From Patescibacteria group bacterium (GTDB lineage: Bacteria > Patescibacteriota > Minisyncoccia > Phycocordibacterales > UBA1006), in assembly GCA_028286885.1 (NCBI GenBank), contig JAQBQS010000016.1, positions 2,809 to 66,808 of the forward strand: a DNA stretch of 64,000 nucleotides, written 5' to 3'. A model generated the notes under the pieces. The model did no database searches and was not told where the DNA came from. It was given only the letters and a program-made list of their open reading frames with translations. Numbering within the stretch: the stretch's first letter is position 1; the number at the start of each line of letters is the position of its first letter. Positions 3,390-51,319 of this stretch are shown here, piece after piece. The position numbers and the translations under genes were made by a program.

Positions 3390-3728
3390 ATGAAATTTAA
3401 TCCTTTTAAGATAATTTTAAGTGTCGCCAGTCTTATTTTAGCTGGAAGTGTGTTTTATTACTTTATTATTTATTTGCCCTCTGAAAAGCAGATGGAACAT
3501 TTTCGAACCGAACAGGGGAATAGTTTGAGAAACTCGGCATTAAATCATTGTTTTCAGGATGTTCAGTCTGAATATCAAGATGATATGACGAAAAACTGTT
3601 TCCAAGAAGGTTTTGATGATTGCTCCCTGAATCCACATGTTGCAGGAAATATGATAGTTGTTTTGAATAATAAATTACAAGCAGATAAGCAAATTTGTAT
3701 TAAAGAGTACGGGACATGGAATCCATAA
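3390..3728 (+). CDS. small membrane-anchored Cys-containing hypothetical protein
   Basis: N-terminal TM helix ILSVASLILAGSVFYYFIIYL; 112 aa; lies immediately downstream of RNA motif copy A. Confidence 0.4.
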   Translation: MKFNPFKIILSVASLILAGSVFYYFIIYLPSEKQMEHFRTEQGNSLRNSALNHCFQDVQSEYQDDMTKNCFQEGFDDCSLNPHVAGNMIVVLNNKLQADKQICIKEYGTWNP

Positions 3729-5078: not shown

Positions 5079-5366
5079 ATGGCAGTAAGAATTACTTGTA
5101 TTAACAAAGATAATGGAAATCATTTAAATCCTCATGCAGGGATAACGCACTTCGGATGGGTAAATGAACAAACCAGGGCTACTGGTAAAAGCACGAAAGC
5201 TGTTATGGTTGATTTTTTGACTAAACAAGGAGGGAAGGCATATGTAAAAGATGCTAGAGGGAATATCGCTTATGTTGGCGTTATTACGAATCATATTCCT
5301 CCATATCTTAGAACCTACGCGGATGGTAAGTGGTCGGATAATTTGCTCAGTTTGGGCGAATGTTAA
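5079..5366 (+). CDS. small conserved hypothetical protein (DUF3892-like)
   Basis: MAVRITCINKDNGNHLNPHAGITHFGWVNE...; 95 aa; family assignment by recollection, low certainty. Confidence 0.3.
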   Translation: MAVRITCINKDNGNHLNPHAGITHFGWVNEQTRATGKSTKAVMVDFLTKQGGKAYVKDARGNIAYVGVITNHIPPYLRTYADGKWSDNLLSLGEC

Positions 5367-5369
5367 TTT

Positions 5370-6104
5370 ATGAAGTTGGTTTTTATTGATGAGACAGATC
5401 GGCAGGCAAGTTCCACAGTCCACGCATTCTTTTCGATTTGTGGGTTGGTTATTGATGAGTCTGAAATTATGGCAACGACAAACGAACTTGAAGAAATTAA
5501 GAAAAAATACAATTTTTCGAATCTAAAGGAATCTAGAAAAAGCGGTCTTTCCGAACAGGAAAAAGTTATTATTTCTACAGAAGTATTTGATTGCCTCAAA
5601 AAACATAACGCATCAATTATTTCAATCGTCTTGGGAGATTTTTCCATGAGCTTTAACATGCCCAAAGATGACCTTTACATGGGAGCAATACAATTCTTGA
5701 TGGAGCGTTTCTGTCTTATTTTAATGAAAGTAAATAGTTGTGGTTTGGCAATATTTGATTGTACAGAAAAGAGATTTGAGAAAAAGCTTAGAGAAAAATT
5801 TTACGAATATATTCAGACTCAAACCGTTCATATGGCTTGGGAGTCAAAACCAAGAGGTCCCATGAGAGATTTCATTCAACCAACTTTATTTTTTGCAGAT
5901 GATGAGCAAAGCATTCTTATTCAAGCGGTTGATCTTATTGCTGTTTCTTTAAACAGTGCGATCGTTAATATTACGCAAAGCAACCCAAAAATCATGGTTG
6001 CAGATCTTCCTTCTGGTAATAAGTTTCTAAACATATACTGGCCACTTTTTGCTTCAAGTTCTTCAGGTAAAGTCGAGGGGTGGGGTGTAAAAGTTTGGGA
6101 TTAA
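5370..6104 (+). CDS. DUF3800-like protein (predicted RNase H-like fold)
   Basis: N-terminal MKLVFIDETD... matches the hydrophobic-DESG start typical of DUF3800; 4-nt intergenic gap to the preceding gene suggests an operon. Confidence 0.4.
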   Translation: MKLVFIDETDRQASSTVHAFFSICGLVIDESEIMATTNELEEIKKKYNFSNLKESRKSGLSEQEKVIISTEVFDCLKKHNASIISIVLGDFSMSFNMPKDDLYMGAIQFLMERFCLILMKVNSCGLAIFDCTEKRFEKKLREKFYEYIQTQTVHMAWESKPRGPMRDFIQPTLFFADDEQSILIQAVDLIAVSLNSAIVNITQSNPKIMVADLPSGNKFLNIYWPLFASSSSGKVEGWGVKVWD

Positions 6105-44894: not shown

Positions 44895-47501
44895 ATGAAT
44901 CTCAATCCTAAAAACTGGTTCGAACTCCAGCAGAAGCGCAAGGCGGTGCGGGCGGACTTGGCCAAGGAAACCGGCATGCGATCCTCCGAGGCTCTCGACA
45001 AAAGCGCGGAAGCCGACGGCATGAACGACCTTCTCGGTGCAATTGCGAGCGGAAACCTCGCGAATGTTTCGCTCGACACCGGAGCCGTCGACGGCGTCGC
45101 AAAATCGGAATATGTCAGGCATCTGCAGGAAACGCTGCGGCAATTGAACGAGGAAGCCGAGAAGTTCGGCCCGGTGACCGAAGAGTCGGTCGAAACCTAC
45201 CGCCAGCAGTCAGGCGAGCATTACGCCTATAAGAAAGTGAACCAGGAACTGCTGAAGCTCGACACTCTGCGCGAGGAGACGGACCGCGCGATTTTCGAAA
45301 TTTTGAAAAACGGCAAGGGCGAAGGCTTTACGCGCATGGACGAAGCGAAGCTCGCCGAGTACGAGAAGATCAAGGGCGCGATCACGAACCGGACGGCGTC
45401 GCTCGAACAGAATCCGGAAACGGCGCTGTTCGTGCGCATGCACACGCTCGACTCGTACCACGATCAGCTCGTCAAGGAAAACTACATCGAGACGCCGTCG
45501 CGAACGGAATACATCGACTGGATCAAGGACCAGATGAAGAACCACCGCGCGGTGCTTCTTGAAGGCGCGACGGGAACCGGAAAAACGGAGCTTCTGATCC
45601 ATACGTCAAAGTCGCTTCTCGGCAAGAACAATCCCGAGATATTGGCCGGAAATCCGCACGTTACGAAATACGATCTCTTGGGAAGCCAGGGATTGGAATC
45701 CGACGAGCATGGAACGAAAACCGTCGACAAGCCTGGATGCCTGCCGCGAGCGATGAAGGACGGCAACCTGCTGATCCTCGACGAGATGAACCAGATCGAA
45801 ACCAAGGTCCGATTCGCGCTCAAGCCGTTTTACCGCTACTCGGGAGTCCGCGGCGGCGAGGTTTCCGTCGAAGGCGTGAACTATCCGGTCAACGACGGAT
45901 TCCTGATCGCGGCTACCGCGAACCTCAAGAGCGAAAAGCACAAGGACCGCTTCGACCTGGACGCGGCCGAGTCGCGCGTATTCGCGATGAAGCGCATCGA
46001 GTACCCTCCGCAAAACGAGCTGTACGACATGGCGCTCGCGGCGCTCCGCAGGAACGACGGAACGTACCTCGTCTCCGAAGGTTCGGCGAAATCGACGCTG
46101 AAGTATCTGGTGGACGCGGCGCGCGACATTCAGGAAGGCTACGAGAAAGCGCTGTCCGCGGGATTTGACCCGTCATCCGGAAAGAAGACGTCGCTTGAAA
46201 AAGCGGTGCTCGATCCCGGCGAATTCATGGCAATGGTCAAGTCGTACACGGCATCCTACGCGTCCGGAAAAACATTCGAGGACCACATCGACGCGCGATT
46301 GGCCGATTTCGTCGCCAAAGGATCGTACCCGGAAAAAGACCGCGTGCTTCTCGCGAAAATTCTGACGTCGAAGGGATTCCTCTTGAAAAACTTTGATCCC
46401 GAAATGCTCCATTTGACGGACGACACGCTGCGAGATTCCCTTGCCCAGTGGCCGATGCCGGCGCAAGACACCCTTGTCCGCGAGCGCGGCACGATGACGG
46501 AACGCGAAGCGGCGATGCTCGATCCGTACGAACTGCGCAAGGAAATGATCGCGAAAACGACCGACAGCTTCGTCGGTATGATTCCCGAGGAAGAAAAGCA
46601 GATGATCCTCAACGCGGCGGAGCGCGGCATCAATTATCTCGAAGCCAAGGAAGCGATCGGGAAAGAAAATTTCCTCGGTCCCGACGAGATCAAGTTCCGA
46701 TTCTCGATCGACGTCAAGAACGCTCCGAAGGTTCCGTTTTCAAAACAGGAACTCATGGACGCGAAAAAGCTCGGCCAGCAGCTGGTTCTGTACGTCGACA
46801 AGACGAAAGACGGCAAGCCCCTGACGATTTCCGCCATGCGCGAGCAGACGAAAAACAAGACGAGCCAGGCAACCGGACTCTTCGCGGACGGCGACGATTA
46901 TTTCAAGAACAACGGGCTTGATCAGGAAACGCCGCGCGTCGGCTGGCGCCTGACTTCCAAGGAGTGCCTGCCGAATTCGGAAAACAAGAACTATTTCGGA
47001 CAGACGCAGGTTGCCGTCGATTACTTGAAAAACGAAGTCTTCAAGGGAACTAAAATTCCCAAGGAATACGCCGAAGCGTTCGACGAATGGGAAGCGGTCA
47101 AGAAAACGAATCTCAAGGAGCAGTCCGAATCGGGCGACAGCGCGAAATGGATGGCCGCGTCGCAGCAGCTCGCGAATCTCAAGATTACGCAGCTGACCCG
47201 CGAGCGATTGTCCGAAGTCATGTACCGCCTCGCGATTCAGGAATCGAAAAACAAAGAGCGTTTGCTCGATTCCGCGGGCCGCACGGTCTACTATACGTGG
47301 ACGAGCTCCCGTGGTTCCGATGGCGACTTGGCTCTCGCCGGCCGCTTCGATTCCGACGGCGTGGATGTGTGCGCGGGTGGGAGCCGAGGGATTCCGGCTC
47401 GCGCATCGGGGTTTGTCTCTCTCGCAGTTGAATTTAGGATATCAGGAATTTTTGAATCATGCGGAACAAACCGCCCGGATAGGGCGGTTTGTGGCGAATG
47501 A
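44895..47501 (+). CDS. AAA+ ATPase (AAA_5/MoxR-like) with long C-terminal extension ending in a DGR variable region; VR is frameshifted as assembled
   Basis: Walker A GATGTGKT, Walker B LLILDEMN; C-terminal ...YYTWTSSRGSDGDLALAGRFDSDGVDV... overlaps VR; in the TR-matching frame the protein would end ...IGVCLSRS* at 47431. Confidence 0.6.
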   Translation: MNLNPKNWFELQQKRKAVRADLAKETGMRSSEALDKSAEADGMNDLLGAIASGNLANVSLDTGAVDGVAKSEYVRHLQETLRQLNEEAEKFGPVTEESVETYRQQSGEHYAYKKVNQELLKLDTLREETDRAIFEILKNGKGEGFTRMDEAKLAEYEKIKGAITNRTASLEQNPETALFVRMHTLDSYHDQLVKENYIETPSRTEYIDWIKDQMKNHRAVLLEGATGTGKTELLIHTSKSLLGKNNPEILAGNPHVTKYDLLGSQGLESDEHGTKTVDKPGCLPRAMKDGNLLILDEMNQIETKVRFALKPFYRYSGVRGGEVSVEGVNYPVNDGFLIAATANLKSEKHKDRFDLDAAESRVFAMKRIEYPPQNELYDMALAALRRNDGTYLVSEGSAKSTLKYLVDAARDIQEGYEKALSAGFDPSSGKKTSLEKAVLDPGEFMAMVKSYTASYASGKTFEDHIDARLADFVAKGSYPEKDRVLLAKILTSKGFLLKNFDPEMLHLTDDTLRDSLAQWPMPAQDTLVRERGTMTEREAAMLDPYELRKEMIAKTTDSFVGMIPEEEKQMILNAAERGINYLEAKEAIGKENFLGPDEIKFRFSIDVKNAPKVPFSKQELMDAKKLGQQLVLYVDKTKDGKPLTISAMREQTKNKTSQATGLFADGDDYFKNNGLDQETPRVGWRLTSKECLPNSENKNYFGQTQVAVDYLKNEVFKGTKIPKEYAEAFDEWEAVKKTNLKEQSESGDSAKWMAASQQLANLKITQLTRERLSEVMYRLAIQESKNKERLLDSAGRTVYYTWTSSRGSDGDLALAGRFDSDGVDVCAGGSRGIPARASGFVSLAVEFRISGIFESCGTNRPDRAVCGE
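47304..47428 (+). repeat. DGR variable repeat (VR)
   Basis: 125 nt matching TR 47696-47818; all 16 substitutions fall at TR adenines, plus a 2-nt length difference (VR TGCGCG vs TR AACA). Confidence 0.85.
47469..47497 (+). other. GC hairpin downstream of VR (DGR homing-associated stem-loop)
   Basis: ACAAACCGCCC-ggata-GGGCGGTTTGT about 40 nt after the VR 3' end, position typical of the hairpin/cruciform that enhances DGR retrohoming. Confidence 0.5.
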
Positions 47502-47695
47502 AAGTGTGCTAGAATGATCCGCACCGGGAATGCGAAGGCATCAATGATGCCTTTCCCCGAAACATACATTACTGCTTGCCTTCCTCTTCGCGCGAGTATT
47601 TCGACAGCCGCGGCGCGCGCGAAAAAATGACATCCTCGACCTTCTTATGATAATTAAGAACGAAGAAGAACTGACCCGGACGGGGGAAGGCAACA

Positions 47696-47818
47696 AGCTC
47701 CCGTGATTCCGATGGCAACTTGGCTCTCGCCGGCAACTTCGATTCCGACGGCGTGAATGTGAACAGGTGGAAGCCGAGGAATTCCGACTCGAACATCGGG
47801 GTTTGTCTCTCTCGAAGT
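47696..47818 (+). repeat. DGR template repeat (TR)
   Basis: Adenine-rich counterpart of VR, with AAC codons at the variable positions; shared 3' IMH-like end CATCGGGGTTTGTCTCTCTCG. Confidence 0.85.
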
Positions 47819-47837
47819 GATAACATGTCAAACGAAA

Positions 47838-47880
47838 ACGGAGCGGGCCCTTCAGGGCCGCGCTCCGTTTTCACTCTCTA
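47838..47880. terminator. GC hairpin with flanking A- and T-runs just 3' of TR and 3' of avd
   Basis: aaaacGGAGCGGGCCCttcaGGGCCgCGCTCCgtttt. Confidence 0.5.
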
Positions 47881-48184
47881 TTTTTTTAATCCAACCGCCG
47901 ATGATTTTTCCAAGTTCCGCCAAGTGTTCCGAGAGGATCACATGCGCCCGGTCGGGAAGGCATTTCGCGTCGTTTGCGATGCGCAGCCGAAGCTGGATGC
48001 TTTTGAGTTCGACGTCGATTTTATTAACCAGCAACAACTGGCTTGCACCCTTCTTGGACCGCGCGAGCATTCCCATCTCGAGCGCTTCGAAGGCCTTGGG
48101 GATGATCGGAAGTCCGAGGGCGTACCGGTCGAATTTTGGCATTTTGCCTACATACATATGCAACGCGACAATGAACTTGCACAT
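47852..48184 (-). CDS. avd: DGR accessory variability determinant (Avd)-like four-helix-bundle protein
   Basis: 110 aa: MCKFIVALHMYVGKMPKFDRYALGLP...HVILSEHLAELGKIIGGWIKKIESE; resembles bAvd (…SIPRKHG… and …LIAEVGRILGSWIARV…); it is the 3' end of the long antisense ORF 47852-50584. Confidence 0.5.
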   Translation of the reverse strand: MCKFIVALHMYVGKMPKFDRYALGLPIIPKAFEALEMGMLARSKKGASQLLLVNKIDVELKSIQLRLRIANDAKCLPDRAHVILSEHLAELGKIIGGWIKKIESENGARP

Positions 48185-48216
48185 TTTGGCCGCGAAAGCG
48201 CTCGACGCCAAAATTC

Positions 48217-48230
48217 GGGGGGGGGGGGGG
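48217..48230. repeat. homopolymeric G14 tract between divergent avd and RT starts
   Basis: aaattcGGGGGGGGGGGGGGtgattcag. Confidence 0.8.
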
Positions 48231-49279
48231 TGATTCAGGACACCTATTCTAACATCATCTCGCTCAAAAACTTGTTCACCGCGTGGAAGGAATTTATCAT
48301 CGGCAAGAAAAATAAAGCGGACGTTCTTGAATTCGGCACGATGTACGAGCAGGAATTGATCGCGCTCCACGCTTCGCTCGATCTCGGACGGTATTCGCAC
48401 GGCGGCTACCACGCGTTCATGGTCTGCGATCCGAAGCGCAGATCGATCAACAAGGCCCGGGTGCGCGACCGCGTTTTGCATCACGCGATCCACAGGCTTC
48501 TCGTTCCGATATTCGAGCCCGGGTTCATTTTCGATTCCTATTCGTCGAGAAAAGCCAAAGGCGTCCATGCGGCGCGCGAGCGATTCCGCGAATTCGCGCG
48601 CGTGCTGTCGCGGAACAATACGAAAACAGTCTGGGTTCTCAAATGCGACATCAGGAAATTTTTCGATTCGGTCGACCATGCGGTTCTTATGGGCCTTCTC
48701 GCGCGCAGGCTGAAGTGCCCGCGGACGCTCGCGCTTCTCGGCAATATCATCCGAAGCTACGACTCCGGCGCGGGGAAGGGAATACCGCTCGGCAACCTGA
48801 CAAGCCAGCTGTTTTCGAACGTCTACATGGATCCGTTCGACCAGTTCATGAAAAGGATCGTCCGCGCGAAATGCTATATAAGGTACGCGGACGATTTCGT
48901 GATCCTTTCCCGCGACCGCGACTATTTGGCACGCCTGATTCCGACGATCAACGCCTTCCTGGACAAAGACCTCAAGCTCCGGATGCATCCGAACAAAGTC
49001 GAGATCAAGAAATGGCATTCCGGAATCGATTTTCTGGGGGCGACGATGTTCCCGCATTTTCGCGTTCTGCGCACCAAGACCAAAAGGCGCGCGTTCAGAA
49101 AAATCAGGAAGAACATTATTTTTTACAAGAACGGACTCATCCAATACGAGGATCTTGTTTCGATCATCCGTTCGTATCTGGGAATCATGCAGCACGTGGA
49201 CTCGTTCGGCGTCAGGCGAGACCTCTTGTCGATGATCAGGAGCATGGGATCCGCAGGTGTGGAATTCTCGAAATTGTGA
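48230..49279 (+). CDS. DGR reverse transcriptase
   Basis: RT motifs IRKFFDSVDH (motif 2), IPLGNLTSQLFSNVYMDPFD (DGR-specific [I/L]GxxxSQ in place of QGxxxSP), YADDFVIL (YxDD); about 349 aa from the GTG at 48230; the track ORF starts upstream at 47720 inside TR. Confidence 0.8.
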   Translation: MIQDTYSNIISLKNLFTAWKEFIIGKKNKADVLEFGTMYEQELIALHASLDLGRYSHGGYHAFMVCDPKRRSINKARVRDRVLHHAIHRLLVPIFEPGFIFDSYSSRKAKGVHAARERFREFARVLSRNNTKTVWVLKCDIRKFFDSVDHAVLMGLLARRLKCPRTLALLGNIIRSYDSGAGKGIPLGNLTSQLFSNVYMDPFDQFMKRIVRAKCYIRYADDFVILSRDRDYLARLIPTINAFLDKDLKLRMHPNKVEIKKWHSGIDFLGATMFPHFRVLRTKTKRRAFRKIRKNIIFYKNGLIQYEDLVSIIRSYLGIMQHVDSFGVRRDLLSMIRSMGSAGVEFSKL

Positions 49280-49291
49280 TAGTCTTGGCAC

Positions 49292-51319
49292 ATGAAAGGC
49301 CCCGTTTTCAAGATCGAACAACAAGACGCCGGCGATAAAAACGCGAAGCAAGAAGGCAAAGCCGCCCGGGTATTTGAGACCCATAAGGACTTTTTCGCCA
49401 ATTACACGAAACACGGCAACTTGGAAATCAAGCCCGCAACCGACGCGGGACTTGAAACGTCGGCGATCGATTTGTCGGATCCGAAGCGTCCGAAAATATT
49501 CCTCCACGACGATTTTCTCGAGGAAAAAAGCGGCGGAAGCGACATCGCGGGACTGTGGGCCGCGTCGCACGAGTGCGAGCATCTCGTGGAACTTTTGGGG
49601 CTCTTGAACGAAAAGGACGGGCCGGGAATCTGGCGCGACCGGCAGGCGGCGATCGATGCCGATCCGAGCTTGCACATTCTGGACAATTGCCTGGACGACG
49701 TGAAAATGAACCGAAGCGTCGTTGCGAAGGCTCCGGTCACGCGCGGCAGCTTCCATGAAATTTACGACAAGAAGCTTTTTGCGGACACGGATTTTACCAA
49801 GATCCCGAAACATCTGCAGTTTGCGTACGCGTTGCTGAACGAAGACCCGATCAACGGAGGGCGCGCGTGCACCGTTTCGCCCGACGTGCGCCAGGAAATT
49901 ACGCGCCTCCGGGCCGTTCAAAACGGGCAAAAGCAAAATTTGTTCAACTTCATGACCAATCCCGATGTCGGAATGAAGGACCGCCTGAAGCTGCAGGAAA
50001 TGTTTTTCGAGCCGGTCTATAAAAAATTCAAGCGGGACGACGACAAGAATTGGGAGCCGCCCAAAGACGGCGACAAGAAAGAAGGCGAGGGAAGCCCCGA
50101 TCAGAATCAAGGACAGCAAGGCGAAGGGCAGGATCAAGAAGGCGGCCAGCCTCCAAAGTCCCAAGACCAAAAACCTTCCGGCGACGGAAAAGGCAAGCCG
50201 GAGAAAAAAGAAGGTCCGTCCGAAAACGGCGATCCGAAAGATTCCGAATCCGAACCCGGAGACGGCAAGAAAACGGATGAAAAATACAAGGAGCTCTACG
50301 ACAAGTTCAACGAGGCGATGAAGCAGGCCGTCCCGAAAGATCTCGAGGAAAAAGCCGTCGAGGAATTCATCGACAACAAATCCGATCGGAAAAGCTACGA
50401 GGAGCAATCGCTCGAAGCGTACGCGCTCGCCGAAGGCGTGACGGTCGAAGATTTGAAAGGCTATCGCCGCTACATCGACCGCGTCGAGGAATTGCGCAAT
50501 CCCGAGACCGACGAACTGCTGATCGAGGAAATCCGCAACATTTTCCGCCGCATCATCGCCGAGCGCACCGCAAAGCTGCCGCAATCTAAAATGCCGCAGA
50601 GCGAAGGCGTCACGATCCGGTTTCCCGCCCAGGCCGTCGTCCAGACCAAAGCCGGAAATCCCGAACCCGAAGTCTGGCAGACGATCGAAGAGAAGGAGGC
50701 GGTCAAGGAATTGATCGGCAAGTTCGACGTGACGCTGGTGTGCGACCGGTCCCGCTCCATGGGTTCAGGCGGAAAACTGGAAGCCCAGCGGACGACGTCG
50801 GCTCTGGTTTTGGAAGCTTTGCGCGAGTTCGGCACGGACCTCGAGGACGCGGCGGCGGATTTGGAATCGAATCTCGAAATCAGGACGGAAGTTTGGTCGT
50901 TCGGCGACGACGCGCAGTGCGAACTTTTGAAAGCACTGTCTCCGACGCTCTCCGAAAAAGAACGGGTGCTCGTCTATCAGAAGCTGTCGCAGGTGCCCGG
51001 AAACTCGACCAAGGATTACCAGACCCTCGAAAAGCTGCTGAAGAGTTTGGACCCGAAAGATCTGGACGCGATCGCCGAGAAGAAGCTGCGCAAAATCGTC
51101 TTTGTCGTTTCCGACGGCGAGAGCAGCGACGTCGCCGCAACGAAACGGATTCTCGCGAAGCTTCGCGAAAAAGGAATTCTCGTCTACGGAATCGGCGTCA
51201 CGAACGAAGCGCGATCGATCGAGACGACCTATGCGCCCTCCGGCCGCGTCTGTCCCGACCAGAACCAGCTCCCGGTTGTCATGGGCGAACTCTTGAAAGA
51301 GCAGCTGGAGACCGTCTGA
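49292..51319 (+). CDS. vWA-domain protein (MoxR-partner type) with acidic/Gln/Gly-rich low-complexity linker
   Basis: MIDAS VCDRSRSMGSGGK (DxSxS), later IVFVVSDGESSDV; 675 aa; sits where the vWA partner of a MoxR-type ATPase is expected. Confidence 0.6.
   Translation: MKGPVFKIEQQDAGDKNAKQEGKAARVFETHKDFFANYTKHGNLEIKPATDAGLETSAIDLSDPKRPKIFLHDDFLEEKSGGSDIAGLWAASHECEHLVELLGLLNEKDGPGIWRDRQAAIDADPSLHILDNCLDDVKMNRSVVAKAPVTRGSFHEIYDKKLFADTDFTKIPKHLQFAYALLNEDPINGGRACTVSPDVRQEITRLRAVQNGQKQNLFNFMTNPDVGMKDRLKLQEMFFEPVYKKFKRDDDKNWEPPKDGDKKEGEGSPDQNQGQQGEGQDQEGGQPPKSQDQKPSGDGKGKPEKKEGPSENGDPKDSESEPGDGKKTDEKYKELYDKFNEAMKQAVPKDLEEKAVEEFIDNKSDRKSYEEQSLEAYALAEGVTVEDLKGYRRYIDRVEELRNPETDELLIEEIRNIFRRIIAERTAKLPQSKMPQSEGVTIRFPAQAVVQTKAGNPEPEVWQTIEEKEAVKELIGKFDVTLVCDRSRSMGSGGKLEAQRTTSALVLEALREFGTDLEDAAADLESNLEIRTEVWSFGDDAQCELLKALSPTLSEKERVLVYQKLSQVPGNSTKDYQTLEKLLKSLDPKDLDAIAEKKLRKIVFVVSDGESSDVAATKRILAKLREKGILVYGIGVTNEARSIETTYAPSGRVCPDQNQLPVVMGELLKEQLETV

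Follow-up and report, generated by a model that had tools for sequence, protein, structure and literature searches.

A 64,000-nucleotide (nt) stretch of a metagenome-assembled Patescibacteria genome (contig JAQBQS010000016.1; hereafter the window, meaning the whole stretch that was analysed) carries a complete diversity-generating retroelement (DGR), formed by a template repeat (TR), a variable repeat (VR), a reverse transcriptase (RT) and Avd. The avd and RT genes of this element are divergent, and at the point where they meet stands a run of 14 G residues (G14). The tract is almost certainly a real feature under selection. Among related DGRs it is conserved, it keeps its position, it varies in length, and the sequences around it bear the signatures of translation across it. 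It probably acts as a switch of the reading frame of Avd and, in the lineage of the window, of RT as well. For the bacteria of the candidate phyla radiation (CPR) as a whole, the evidence inclines modestly towards a broader view, in which most CPR DGRs are phase-variable: a repeat in the overlap of avd and RT would toggle targeted hypermutation in a heritable and reversible manner, and in the sub-lineage of the window it would do so through both enzymes. The features on which this argument is built are listed here, with the open reading frame (ORF) of avd given in its proposed extended form.

48217..48230, plus strand (C14 on the avd strand): G14 simple-sequence tract, the proposed frame switch; from the sequence and the tracts of relatives.
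47852..48238, minus strand: avd ORF including the proposed leader through the tract; from bAvd and DivGenRetAVD matches, the open frame and family evidence.
From about 48208 (TTG), minus strand: conserved domain of avd; from the profile match.
48158..49279, plus strand: reverse transcriptase, Pfam RVT_1 with an expect value (E) of 3e-23; core from GTG 48230, 349 amino acids (aa).
48246..48254, minus strand: extended -10-like TGTTAGAAT, a candidate avd promoter element; read by eye and missed by the promoter scan.

The repeat tract at the avd/RT junction

The tract (GGGGGGGGGGGGGG) is G14, occupies positions 48217-48230 and is followed by TG; hence the GTG from which the RT core is read lies at 48230-48232. 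Both the coordinates of the run and its contact with GTG 48230 had been given in the original prediction, a note made from the sequence alone, and both can be read directly from the sequence. G14 is the only homopolymer of at least 8, of any base, in the window. When a G10 pattern was searched with one mismatch allowed, the tract was the sole match site, with 8 overlapping positions against 1.1 expected, and this count was reached in none of 100 shuffles. A consensus scan for sigma-70 promoters and terminators made no call at the avd/RT junction, where -10-like boxes were identified by eye and not by that scan. Rfam gave no match across 47000-48600, and the exact 23-nt pattern of the left flank had no match in the JGI metagenomes.

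The arrangement of the genes was compared with that of relatives. A scan with one genome per species yielded 80 loci with RT relatives of 47-64% identity, nearly all from metagenome-assembled genomes of the CPR; in 69 of these 80, the region immediately upstream of RT holds an Avd ORF on the other strand, and most of the remaining loci have no upstream DNA. The same divergent avd is seen in a second, independent set of 80 metagenome loci, and after de-duplication the combined set holds 145 loci with a divergent Avd. According to the searched text of Wu et al. 2018 (PMC5758913), an architecture termed B3, TR-(avd)-RT, makes up 90% of the CPR DGR set, and the window conforms to it, with avd on the reverse strand between TR and RT. 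The orientation of the two genes had thus been described correctly, but not its status: what was taken for a departure from the canonical order is the known B3 architecture (PMC5758913), the norm of the clade and not an anomaly.

A repeat is present at the same avd/RT junction in 128 of the 145 loci, about 88%. In 109 loci it is a poly-G of 7-15, with a mode of 9-10. The other loci have (GA)n or (AG)n (12 loci), (GT)n (three), (CT)n (one) or longer arrays, namely (CTGG)n of 41-45 nt in two loci and a 78-nt (TGATTGC)n array in one. No repeat is found in 16 of the 145, and L069, with a short (GCG)n, was counted with the repeat-less loci in the tests described below. Runs of G or C of at least 8 occur about 5.5 times per kb at the junction and 0.004 times per kb in the flanks (824 kb of first-set sequence, holding three such runs), a difference in density of about 1500-fold. 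The closest full relative, L083, whose RT is 74% identical to that of the window, is colinear with it across the junction and has G15. Since relatives carry a repeat in the same place, G14 is not an artefact of sequencing or assembly, an alternative that had been raised at the outset; the idea that it is a slipped-strand site has become plausible, given that 128 of 145 independent related loci share a repeat at this point. The exchange of poly-G for unrelated repeat motifs argues that selection may act on repetitiveness itself rather than on one particular sequence.

Some runs were also observed away from the junction. Apart from artefacts at contig ends, those of at least 8 in the 824 kb are two G10 runs in L053 and a G8 in L071 (2648-2655). 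The runs of L053, at 3404-3413 and 5253-5262, are near its DGR; one stands in the 5' end of an ORF with a signal peptide (MPKRSGGGYNNRMRLKSVF...) that closely follows RT, and the other 13 nt upstream of a second Avd-like ORF (5275-5676). A compound junction repeat, (GA)n followed by G9, occurs in L051 at about 5950-5981 and may be an intermediate between tract types.

A probable head-to-head overlap of avd and RT

The minus-strand ORF that had been proposed as avd, from ATG 48184 to a stop at 47852 (110 aa), has the coordinates and the N-terminus assigned to it, with a distance of 45 nt from its ATG to GTG 48230 of RT on the opposite strand; its C-terminus had been quoted slightly short, the real end being ...KKIESENGARP. 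Comparison with profile hidden Markov models, named as a check in the original prediction, supports its identity as Avd. Pfam bAvd (PF22296) matches the minus-strand ORF from TTG 48208 with E 8.5e-14 and 52.4 bits (cut-off 40), and the alignment spans profile positions 6-107 of 107. DivGenRetAVD (NF033474) is the sole NCBIfam match of the ORF, with E 6e-15 and 55 bits, which is below the strict equivalog cut-off of 80. The coverage of the profile indicates that the Avd protein would begin upstream of ATG 48184, either at TTG 48208 or beyond the tract. The most likely start, judged from the wider family, is the codon 48238-48236 within the 5' end of RT, so that the two genes would not be set apart as first supposed. 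The avd frame stays open through C14, and the resulting protein, of 110-128 aa according to the start codon, fits the size of the family, about 110-130 aa.

This codon is CTG in the window and ATG in the Logan contig L001, an independent assembly of the same strain. The cause is position 48238, G in the window and T in L001, which is the sole difference over 5.6 kb. A T at this position restores both a His codon of RT (CAT) and the ATG of avd, and gives a 128-aa Avd (MNHPPPPRILASS...) in frame through C14. The bias towards CAT across the family, described below, favours T as the probable state. The -10-like TGTTAGAAT lies inside the 5' codons of RT and, on the avd strand, precedes the tract by about 15 nt; the form TGnTAGAAT is retained in all five sub-lineage sequences of an alignment (A1); it could serve as a promoter element of avd.

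The evidence from relatives concerns, in the first place, the distance between the tract and the two proteins. The conserved N-terminus of Avd is a median of 9 nt from the tract (interquartile range 7-13), and that of RT 32 nt (range 7-140). In the majority class an Avd motif, (L/I)(L/I)P, abuts the tract. All four codons are used for its Pro (20/14/12/9) and the Leu/Ile codons vary synonymously, from which it follows that the motif is translated. In 33 of 55 loci no ATG, GTG or TTG is found from the tract to the Pro codon of the motif, and in several a mere 2 nt separate the two; translation of avd must therefore begin beyond the tract.

A suitable start codon is indeed found there. On the avd strand, an upstream ATG with a stop-free path into the tract is present in 125 of 128 loci, compared with 54% in dinucleotide shuffles. 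The reverse complement of this ATG falls on a conserved His codon close to the N-terminus of RT, which is written CAT in 92 loci and CAC in three, whereas in RT gene bodies the ratio is 1145 to 758 (p 3e-16). In 63 of 65 loci no stop interrupts the path from the His-antisense ATG to the tract; under a null model in which RT codons were resampled synonymously at gene-body usage and the non-coding spacer was shuffled, 38.6 are expected, and the maximum of 20,000 simulations was 51. The RT codons TTA, CTA and TCA, which are stops when read in antisense, account for 1 of 323 codons in the overlap and for 4.0% in gene bodies (p 6e-5). Among relatives without a repeat, 13 of 14 distinct loci have avd in frame with the upstream ATG, giving Avd N-termini such as MDQSNFSHTFNYNLSR-LLPLL... 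and MNTLSSHTSPVAPLK-LLPVL..., compared with 41 of the 128 loci that bear a repeat (Fisher p 1e-5). On the avd strand, the heptamer array of L042 contains no stop in any of the three frames and connects in frame with an upstream ATG; the RT strand is interrupted by TGA. It is concluded, on these comparative grounds, that avd and RT appear to overlap head to head, with the repeat within what would be the 5' coding leader of avd. The same start-site evidence indicates that the junction is not an intergenic promoter region, and the suggestion that the G run fills a divergent promoter region has to be given up, as the family places the tract inside that leader.

In the sub-lineage of the window, the start of RT is also involved. 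Alignment A1 comprises the window, L083, L179, L178 and L002, and RT abuts the tract in all five. No start codon is present at or after the tract in L083 and L002; directly after it the window has GTG and L179 ATG, and in L178 a TTG overlaps the first G of the tract. About 57-63 nt upstream of the tract an ATG on the RT strand is invariant in the five sequences; in the window it lies at 48158 and is in frame with RT through G14 (373 aa), and a second RT-strand ATG, at 48170, would need G15 or G12. The RT gene models of P0002 and P0005, which are gene-caller predictions, run from the upstream ATG through the repeat and have the N-termini MNLHILVTKALDGKIRAGGGGGRIHETY... and MQNGNQPTQFRNENIRKFRRERESFHGLY..., respectively. 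In each of the five sequences, the tract length modulo 3 that brings the avd-strand ATG into frame is also the one required by the conserved RT-strand ATG. The reason is that each ATG is codon-aligned antisense to the opposite gene, and the frame of both is thereby set by a single tract. The two conserved ATGs are in frame in the window (G14) and out of frame in L083 (G15), L179 (G10), L178 (G9) and L002 ((AG)8); some alternative in-frame RT start exists in L083, L179 and L178.

In three near-identical pairs of elements, the number of repeats is the sole difference or nearly so. L096 and L097, with flanks that are 100% identical over 1 kb, have G9 and G10, and the (GT) tracts of L075 and L144 are 27 and 29 nt long. 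In L002, which has (AG)8, both upstream ATGs are out of frame and RT lacks any in-frame start; P0005, whose RT is 99.1% identical to that of L002, carries (AG)7, and its frame is continuous from the upstream ATG. P0017 and P0026, whose models include the tract in the called ORF, are biased as a test of polymorphism, since an identical protein forces an identical length. P0024 (identical RT protein, 12 contigs) belongs to a repeat-less lineage.

Two Logan contigs of the strain of the window, L001 and L082, were found in run SRR13312974; no second full-length assembly of the strain came to light. L001 begins at 48231, exactly at the 3' edge of the tract, and L082, identical to the window, ends at 47313, one base before a variable site of VR at 47314. 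These breaks suggest heterogeneity of the population at both the tract and VR, and the end of L082 suggests, through VR heterogeneity, a DGR that may be active. At least nine contigs from relatives have their start in or at the tract, and three of these carry spurious poly-C. Poly-C of 16-50 nt is seen at contig ends in place of the tract in L056 (1-48) and at the starts of L101 and L145; these are probably assembly artefacts provoked by the tract.

A proposed frame switch and its alternatives

In the mechanism that is proposed, G14 would be the local copy of a conserved, slippage-prone repeat at the meeting point of divergent avd and RT. Translation of avd would start at the ATG antisense to the RT His codon and read poly-C, as prolines, into the four-helix domain of Avd; in the sub-lineage, translation of RT would start at the ATG antisense to the N-terminal codons of avd and read poly-G, as glycines, through the tract. 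One class of tract lengths modulo 3 would put both genes in frame, and the gain or loss of one G by replication slippage would take both out. The outcome would be a heritable and reversible ON/OFF or high/low switch of the Avd-RT complex and hence of mutagenic retrohoming, with the window, at G14, in the in-frame state. Slippage would presumably occur in cells at a useful rate, and an out-of-frame tract would presumably lower Avd or RT and, with them, the activity of the DGR.

Several observations weigh against this mechanism. The assembled lengths put avd in frame in only 32-37% of repeat-bearing loci, which equals chance and shows no enrichment, and RT genes that have no start codon between the tract and the conserved N-terminus are in frame in 16 of 32, a result counted with the former. 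Such a chance-level share is compatible with a freely flipping switch and equally with a tract that is irrelevant to translation. The window as assembled has CTG, not ATG, at the proposed avd start, and possible starts that do not depend on the tract are available both for avd (TTG 48208 and ATG 48184) and for RT (GTG 48230). For RT, most relatives offer a separate ATG downstream of the tract, so that switching of RT would be confined to the sub-lineage. Slippage by RNA polymerase might blur the frame states. Assembled homopolymer lengths may err by one, and the 145 loci are phylogenetically related, so that the p-values overstate their independence. Lastly, poly-G is always on the RT-sense strand (109 loci, against none with poly-C), which would fit a strand-specific function or common descent.

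This strand preference, 109 to 0, would be accounted for if the tract were a fixed element acting in cis, such as a purine-rich Shine-Dalgarno-like site, a spacer in the 5' leader or promoter of RT, or an RNA or DNA structure recognized by RT-Avd, with no mutational switch. Such a role would also suit the start codon that directly follows the tract in L179 (ATG) and in the window (GTG), and the many relatives in which a TAnnnT box follows the tract and the ATG of RT stands 13 nt downstream, the modal distance, an arrangement fit for a leaderless RT messenger RNA with the tract as promoter spacer; the commonest substitute, (GA)n, is likewise purine-rich. However, (GT)n, (CT)n, (CTGG)n of 41-45 nt and the 78-nt heptamer array share neither sequence nor length with G9-10 and are unable to act as a 17-nt promoter spacer. 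The tract is at a nearly fixed distance from the N-terminus of Avd, whereas its distance from the RT start ranges from 0 to about 50 nt, and fourteen distinct relatives have no repeat at all. A cis-acting role would, moreover, leave unexplained the CAT bias, the avoidance of antisense stops and the open antisense frame, and it is considered unlikely.

Somewhat less probable still is slippage at the level of expression, by RNA polymerase or the ribosome, which would yield a constant in-frame minority at any DNA length and thus a low dose of Avd. Homopolymers of at least 9 are sites of RNA polymerase slippage, for example in dnaX of Thermus and in transposases of insertion sequence elements, and under this explanation an in-frame share of one third would be harmless. 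Against it, tetranucleotide and heptanucleotide arrays, for which RNA polymerase slippage of this sort is not expected, occupy the same site, the repeat-less relatives are fixed in frame (13 of 14), and the length of the DNA itself differs between near-identical elements.

The tract could also be a neutral by-product of a slippage-prone spot, tolerated through other start codons; the in-frame share that equals chance and the alternative starts on both sides of the tract in the window would agree with this. It is nevertheless improbable, since uninterrupted tracts of at least 7 are kept down to about 47% RT identity, whereas repeats not under selection decay, their density exceeds that of the flanks about 1500-fold, and the antisense frame that leads into the tract carries clear signatures of purifying selection. 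An artefact of sequencing or assembly, through two-colour poly-G or a chimeric join, can practically be dismissed: the independent assembly of the same sample breaks at the tract, contig ends of three relatives carry poly-C of 16-50 at its position, and the exact length of 14 rests on the assembly, but homologous tracts recur in more than 100 independent assemblies from many studies, and TR, VR and RT on the two sides of the tract make up one coherent DGR. A chimeric join at the tract was rejected, both flanks being colinear with L083 (G15) across the junction. A frame switch by replication slippage is the reading retained in what follows.

The complete element and its place among known systems

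The remaining features of the element and its surroundings are, in the order of the window, the following.

44895..47501, plus strand: DGR target gene, 868 aa, with a MoxR-like AAA_5 ATPase domain (Pfam AAA_5, E 7.9e-10) and VR at its 3' end.
47301..47428, plus strand: VR, forming a direct repeat with TR, within the final codons of the target ORF.
47457..47501, plus strand: hairpin after VR (inverted repeat I1), -27 kcal/mol, z -4.7.
47627..47654, plus strand: promoter-like site ATGACA-16-GATAAT just upstream of TR; consensus match only, 10/12.
47693..47818, plus strand: TR, from the repeat pair with VR.
47834..47872, no strand assigned: strong hairpin located between TR and avd (3' end), with U-runs on each strand; from folding.
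49292..51319, plus strand: gene with a VWA domain downstream of RT (Pfam VWA, E 1.4e-7), given as context.

The VR/TR pair is 126-128 nt long and differs by 15 substitutions within the repeat (16 in a wider local alignment, 12 A>G and 4 A>C), all at adenines of TR. Relative to TR, VR has two additional bases, TG, at 47366-47367 within a (TG)n context. They put the final 20 or so codons of the target into another frame and lengthen its ORF to 47501; read in the TR-like frame, the protein would have the end ...GWEPRDSGSRIGVCLSRS and a stop at 47431. This insertion may be a true indel, or it may come from a consensus that is chimeric across a hypervariable stretch. Inside TR (47705-47752) there is an imperfect 18-nt tandem repeat of 2.7 copies; in the variable domain it corresponds to a DSDGN-like motif that recurs. 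TR lies 34 nt from the 3' end of avd, the 5' end of avd meets RT, and avd has the same neighbours in 145 relatives. The hairpin between TR and avd has a folding energy of -33 kcal/mol on each strand (z -6.9 and -7.3), with none of 200 shuffles as stable; it is likely a two-way terminator that would also end avd. TR resembles a self-contained unit of about 210 nt (47627-47872), with the promoter-like site, TR itself and the -33 kcal/mol hairpin.

The RT sequence includes ...GIPLGNLTSQLFSNVYM... and YADD, and its closest relatives are RTs flanked by Avd. The VWA gene is likely the partner of the AAA_5 target, and the same order of AAA_5, DGR and VWA is found in L083 (1707-4259 and 6143-8194; RT 74% identical). 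A diversified AAA+/VWA pair is an unusual context for a DGR target. Exact look-ups of the window Avd (with two candidate starts), the target protein and the 373-aa RT model gave no match. The NCBI protein JWM20_897 is the RT of the window, modelled at 484 aa through the tract and the entire antisense of avd. ORFs are open on both strands over avd and RT (47825-49279 on the plus strand and 47852-50584 on the minus strand), and the antisense ORF, of 910 aa, covers RT and part of the VWA gene. These long opposite-strand ORFs and the 484-aa model are likely annotation traps.

CPR bacteria carry many DGRs. A conserved repeat switch, if the reading holds, would be a concrete and testable mechanism of their control: metagenomic reads give the tract length directly, and it can be set against the diversity of VR within one sample. 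A lineage could then freeze a useful variant or resume diversification, and a stochastic switch placed over a targeted mutator, that is, a second-order switch of evolvability, would be a clear case of layered evolvability. In practical terms, gene callers mis-model these loci, as with the 484-aa RT, assemblers break at the tract, and the true start of avd probably lies within the RT gene.

The element resembles the DGR of phage BPP-1 (mtd-avd-TR-brt) in its Avd, its RT, the adenine-specific differences between TR and VR, and the hairpin after VR. In BPP-1, avd is co-oriented with TR and brt, the Bordetella phage produces an avd-TR-spacer-RT transcript, and its DGR is not known to contain a repeat tract. 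In the window, by contrast, avd is inverted and TR seems to stand apart as a short unit equipped with a promoter-like site and a terminator hairpin. A single repeat that controls two divergent genes has a parallel in hifA/hifB of Haemophilus influenzae, where (TA)n lies in overlapping divergent promoters and acts through the spacing of -35 and -10 boxes; the DGR junction points instead to control of the reading frame in overlapping 5' coding leaders.

A further likeness is with the contingency loci of Neisseria, Haemophilus and Campylobacter, in which poly-G/C of at least 7 is located in the 5' part of ORFs (PMC4965091, PMC11868660). As in those loci, the DGR junction has a homopolymeric G/C tract, 7-15 nt long, close to the 5' end of an ORF, the repeat unit is never a multiple of three (here 1, 2, 4 or 7 nt), three pairs of near-identical relatives differ in length, and both in-frame and out-of-frame genomes occur. 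Contingency loci mostly switch surface structures or restriction-modification, whereas the enzymes of targeted hypermutation would be switched here, and one tract in the overlap of two divergent ORFs can set the frames of both.

Like the window, the B3 DGRs of CPR hosts consist of target and VR, TR, a reverse-strand avd and RT (PMC5758913, in the text searched). In the searched text of PMC5758913, nothing is said about a repeat tract or about avd and RT starts that overlap; compared with B3 as described there, the junction repeat and the head-to-head overlap are additions of the present analysis. Neither an avd/RT junction repeat nor overlapping starts were described in the literature found on DGRs with phase variation or repeats, a search that did not cover the main survey of CPR DGRs, Paul et al. 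2017. The DGR, the B3 architecture and repeat-mediated phase variation are each known; what would be new is a lineage of DGRs that appears to have a repeat switch built into it.

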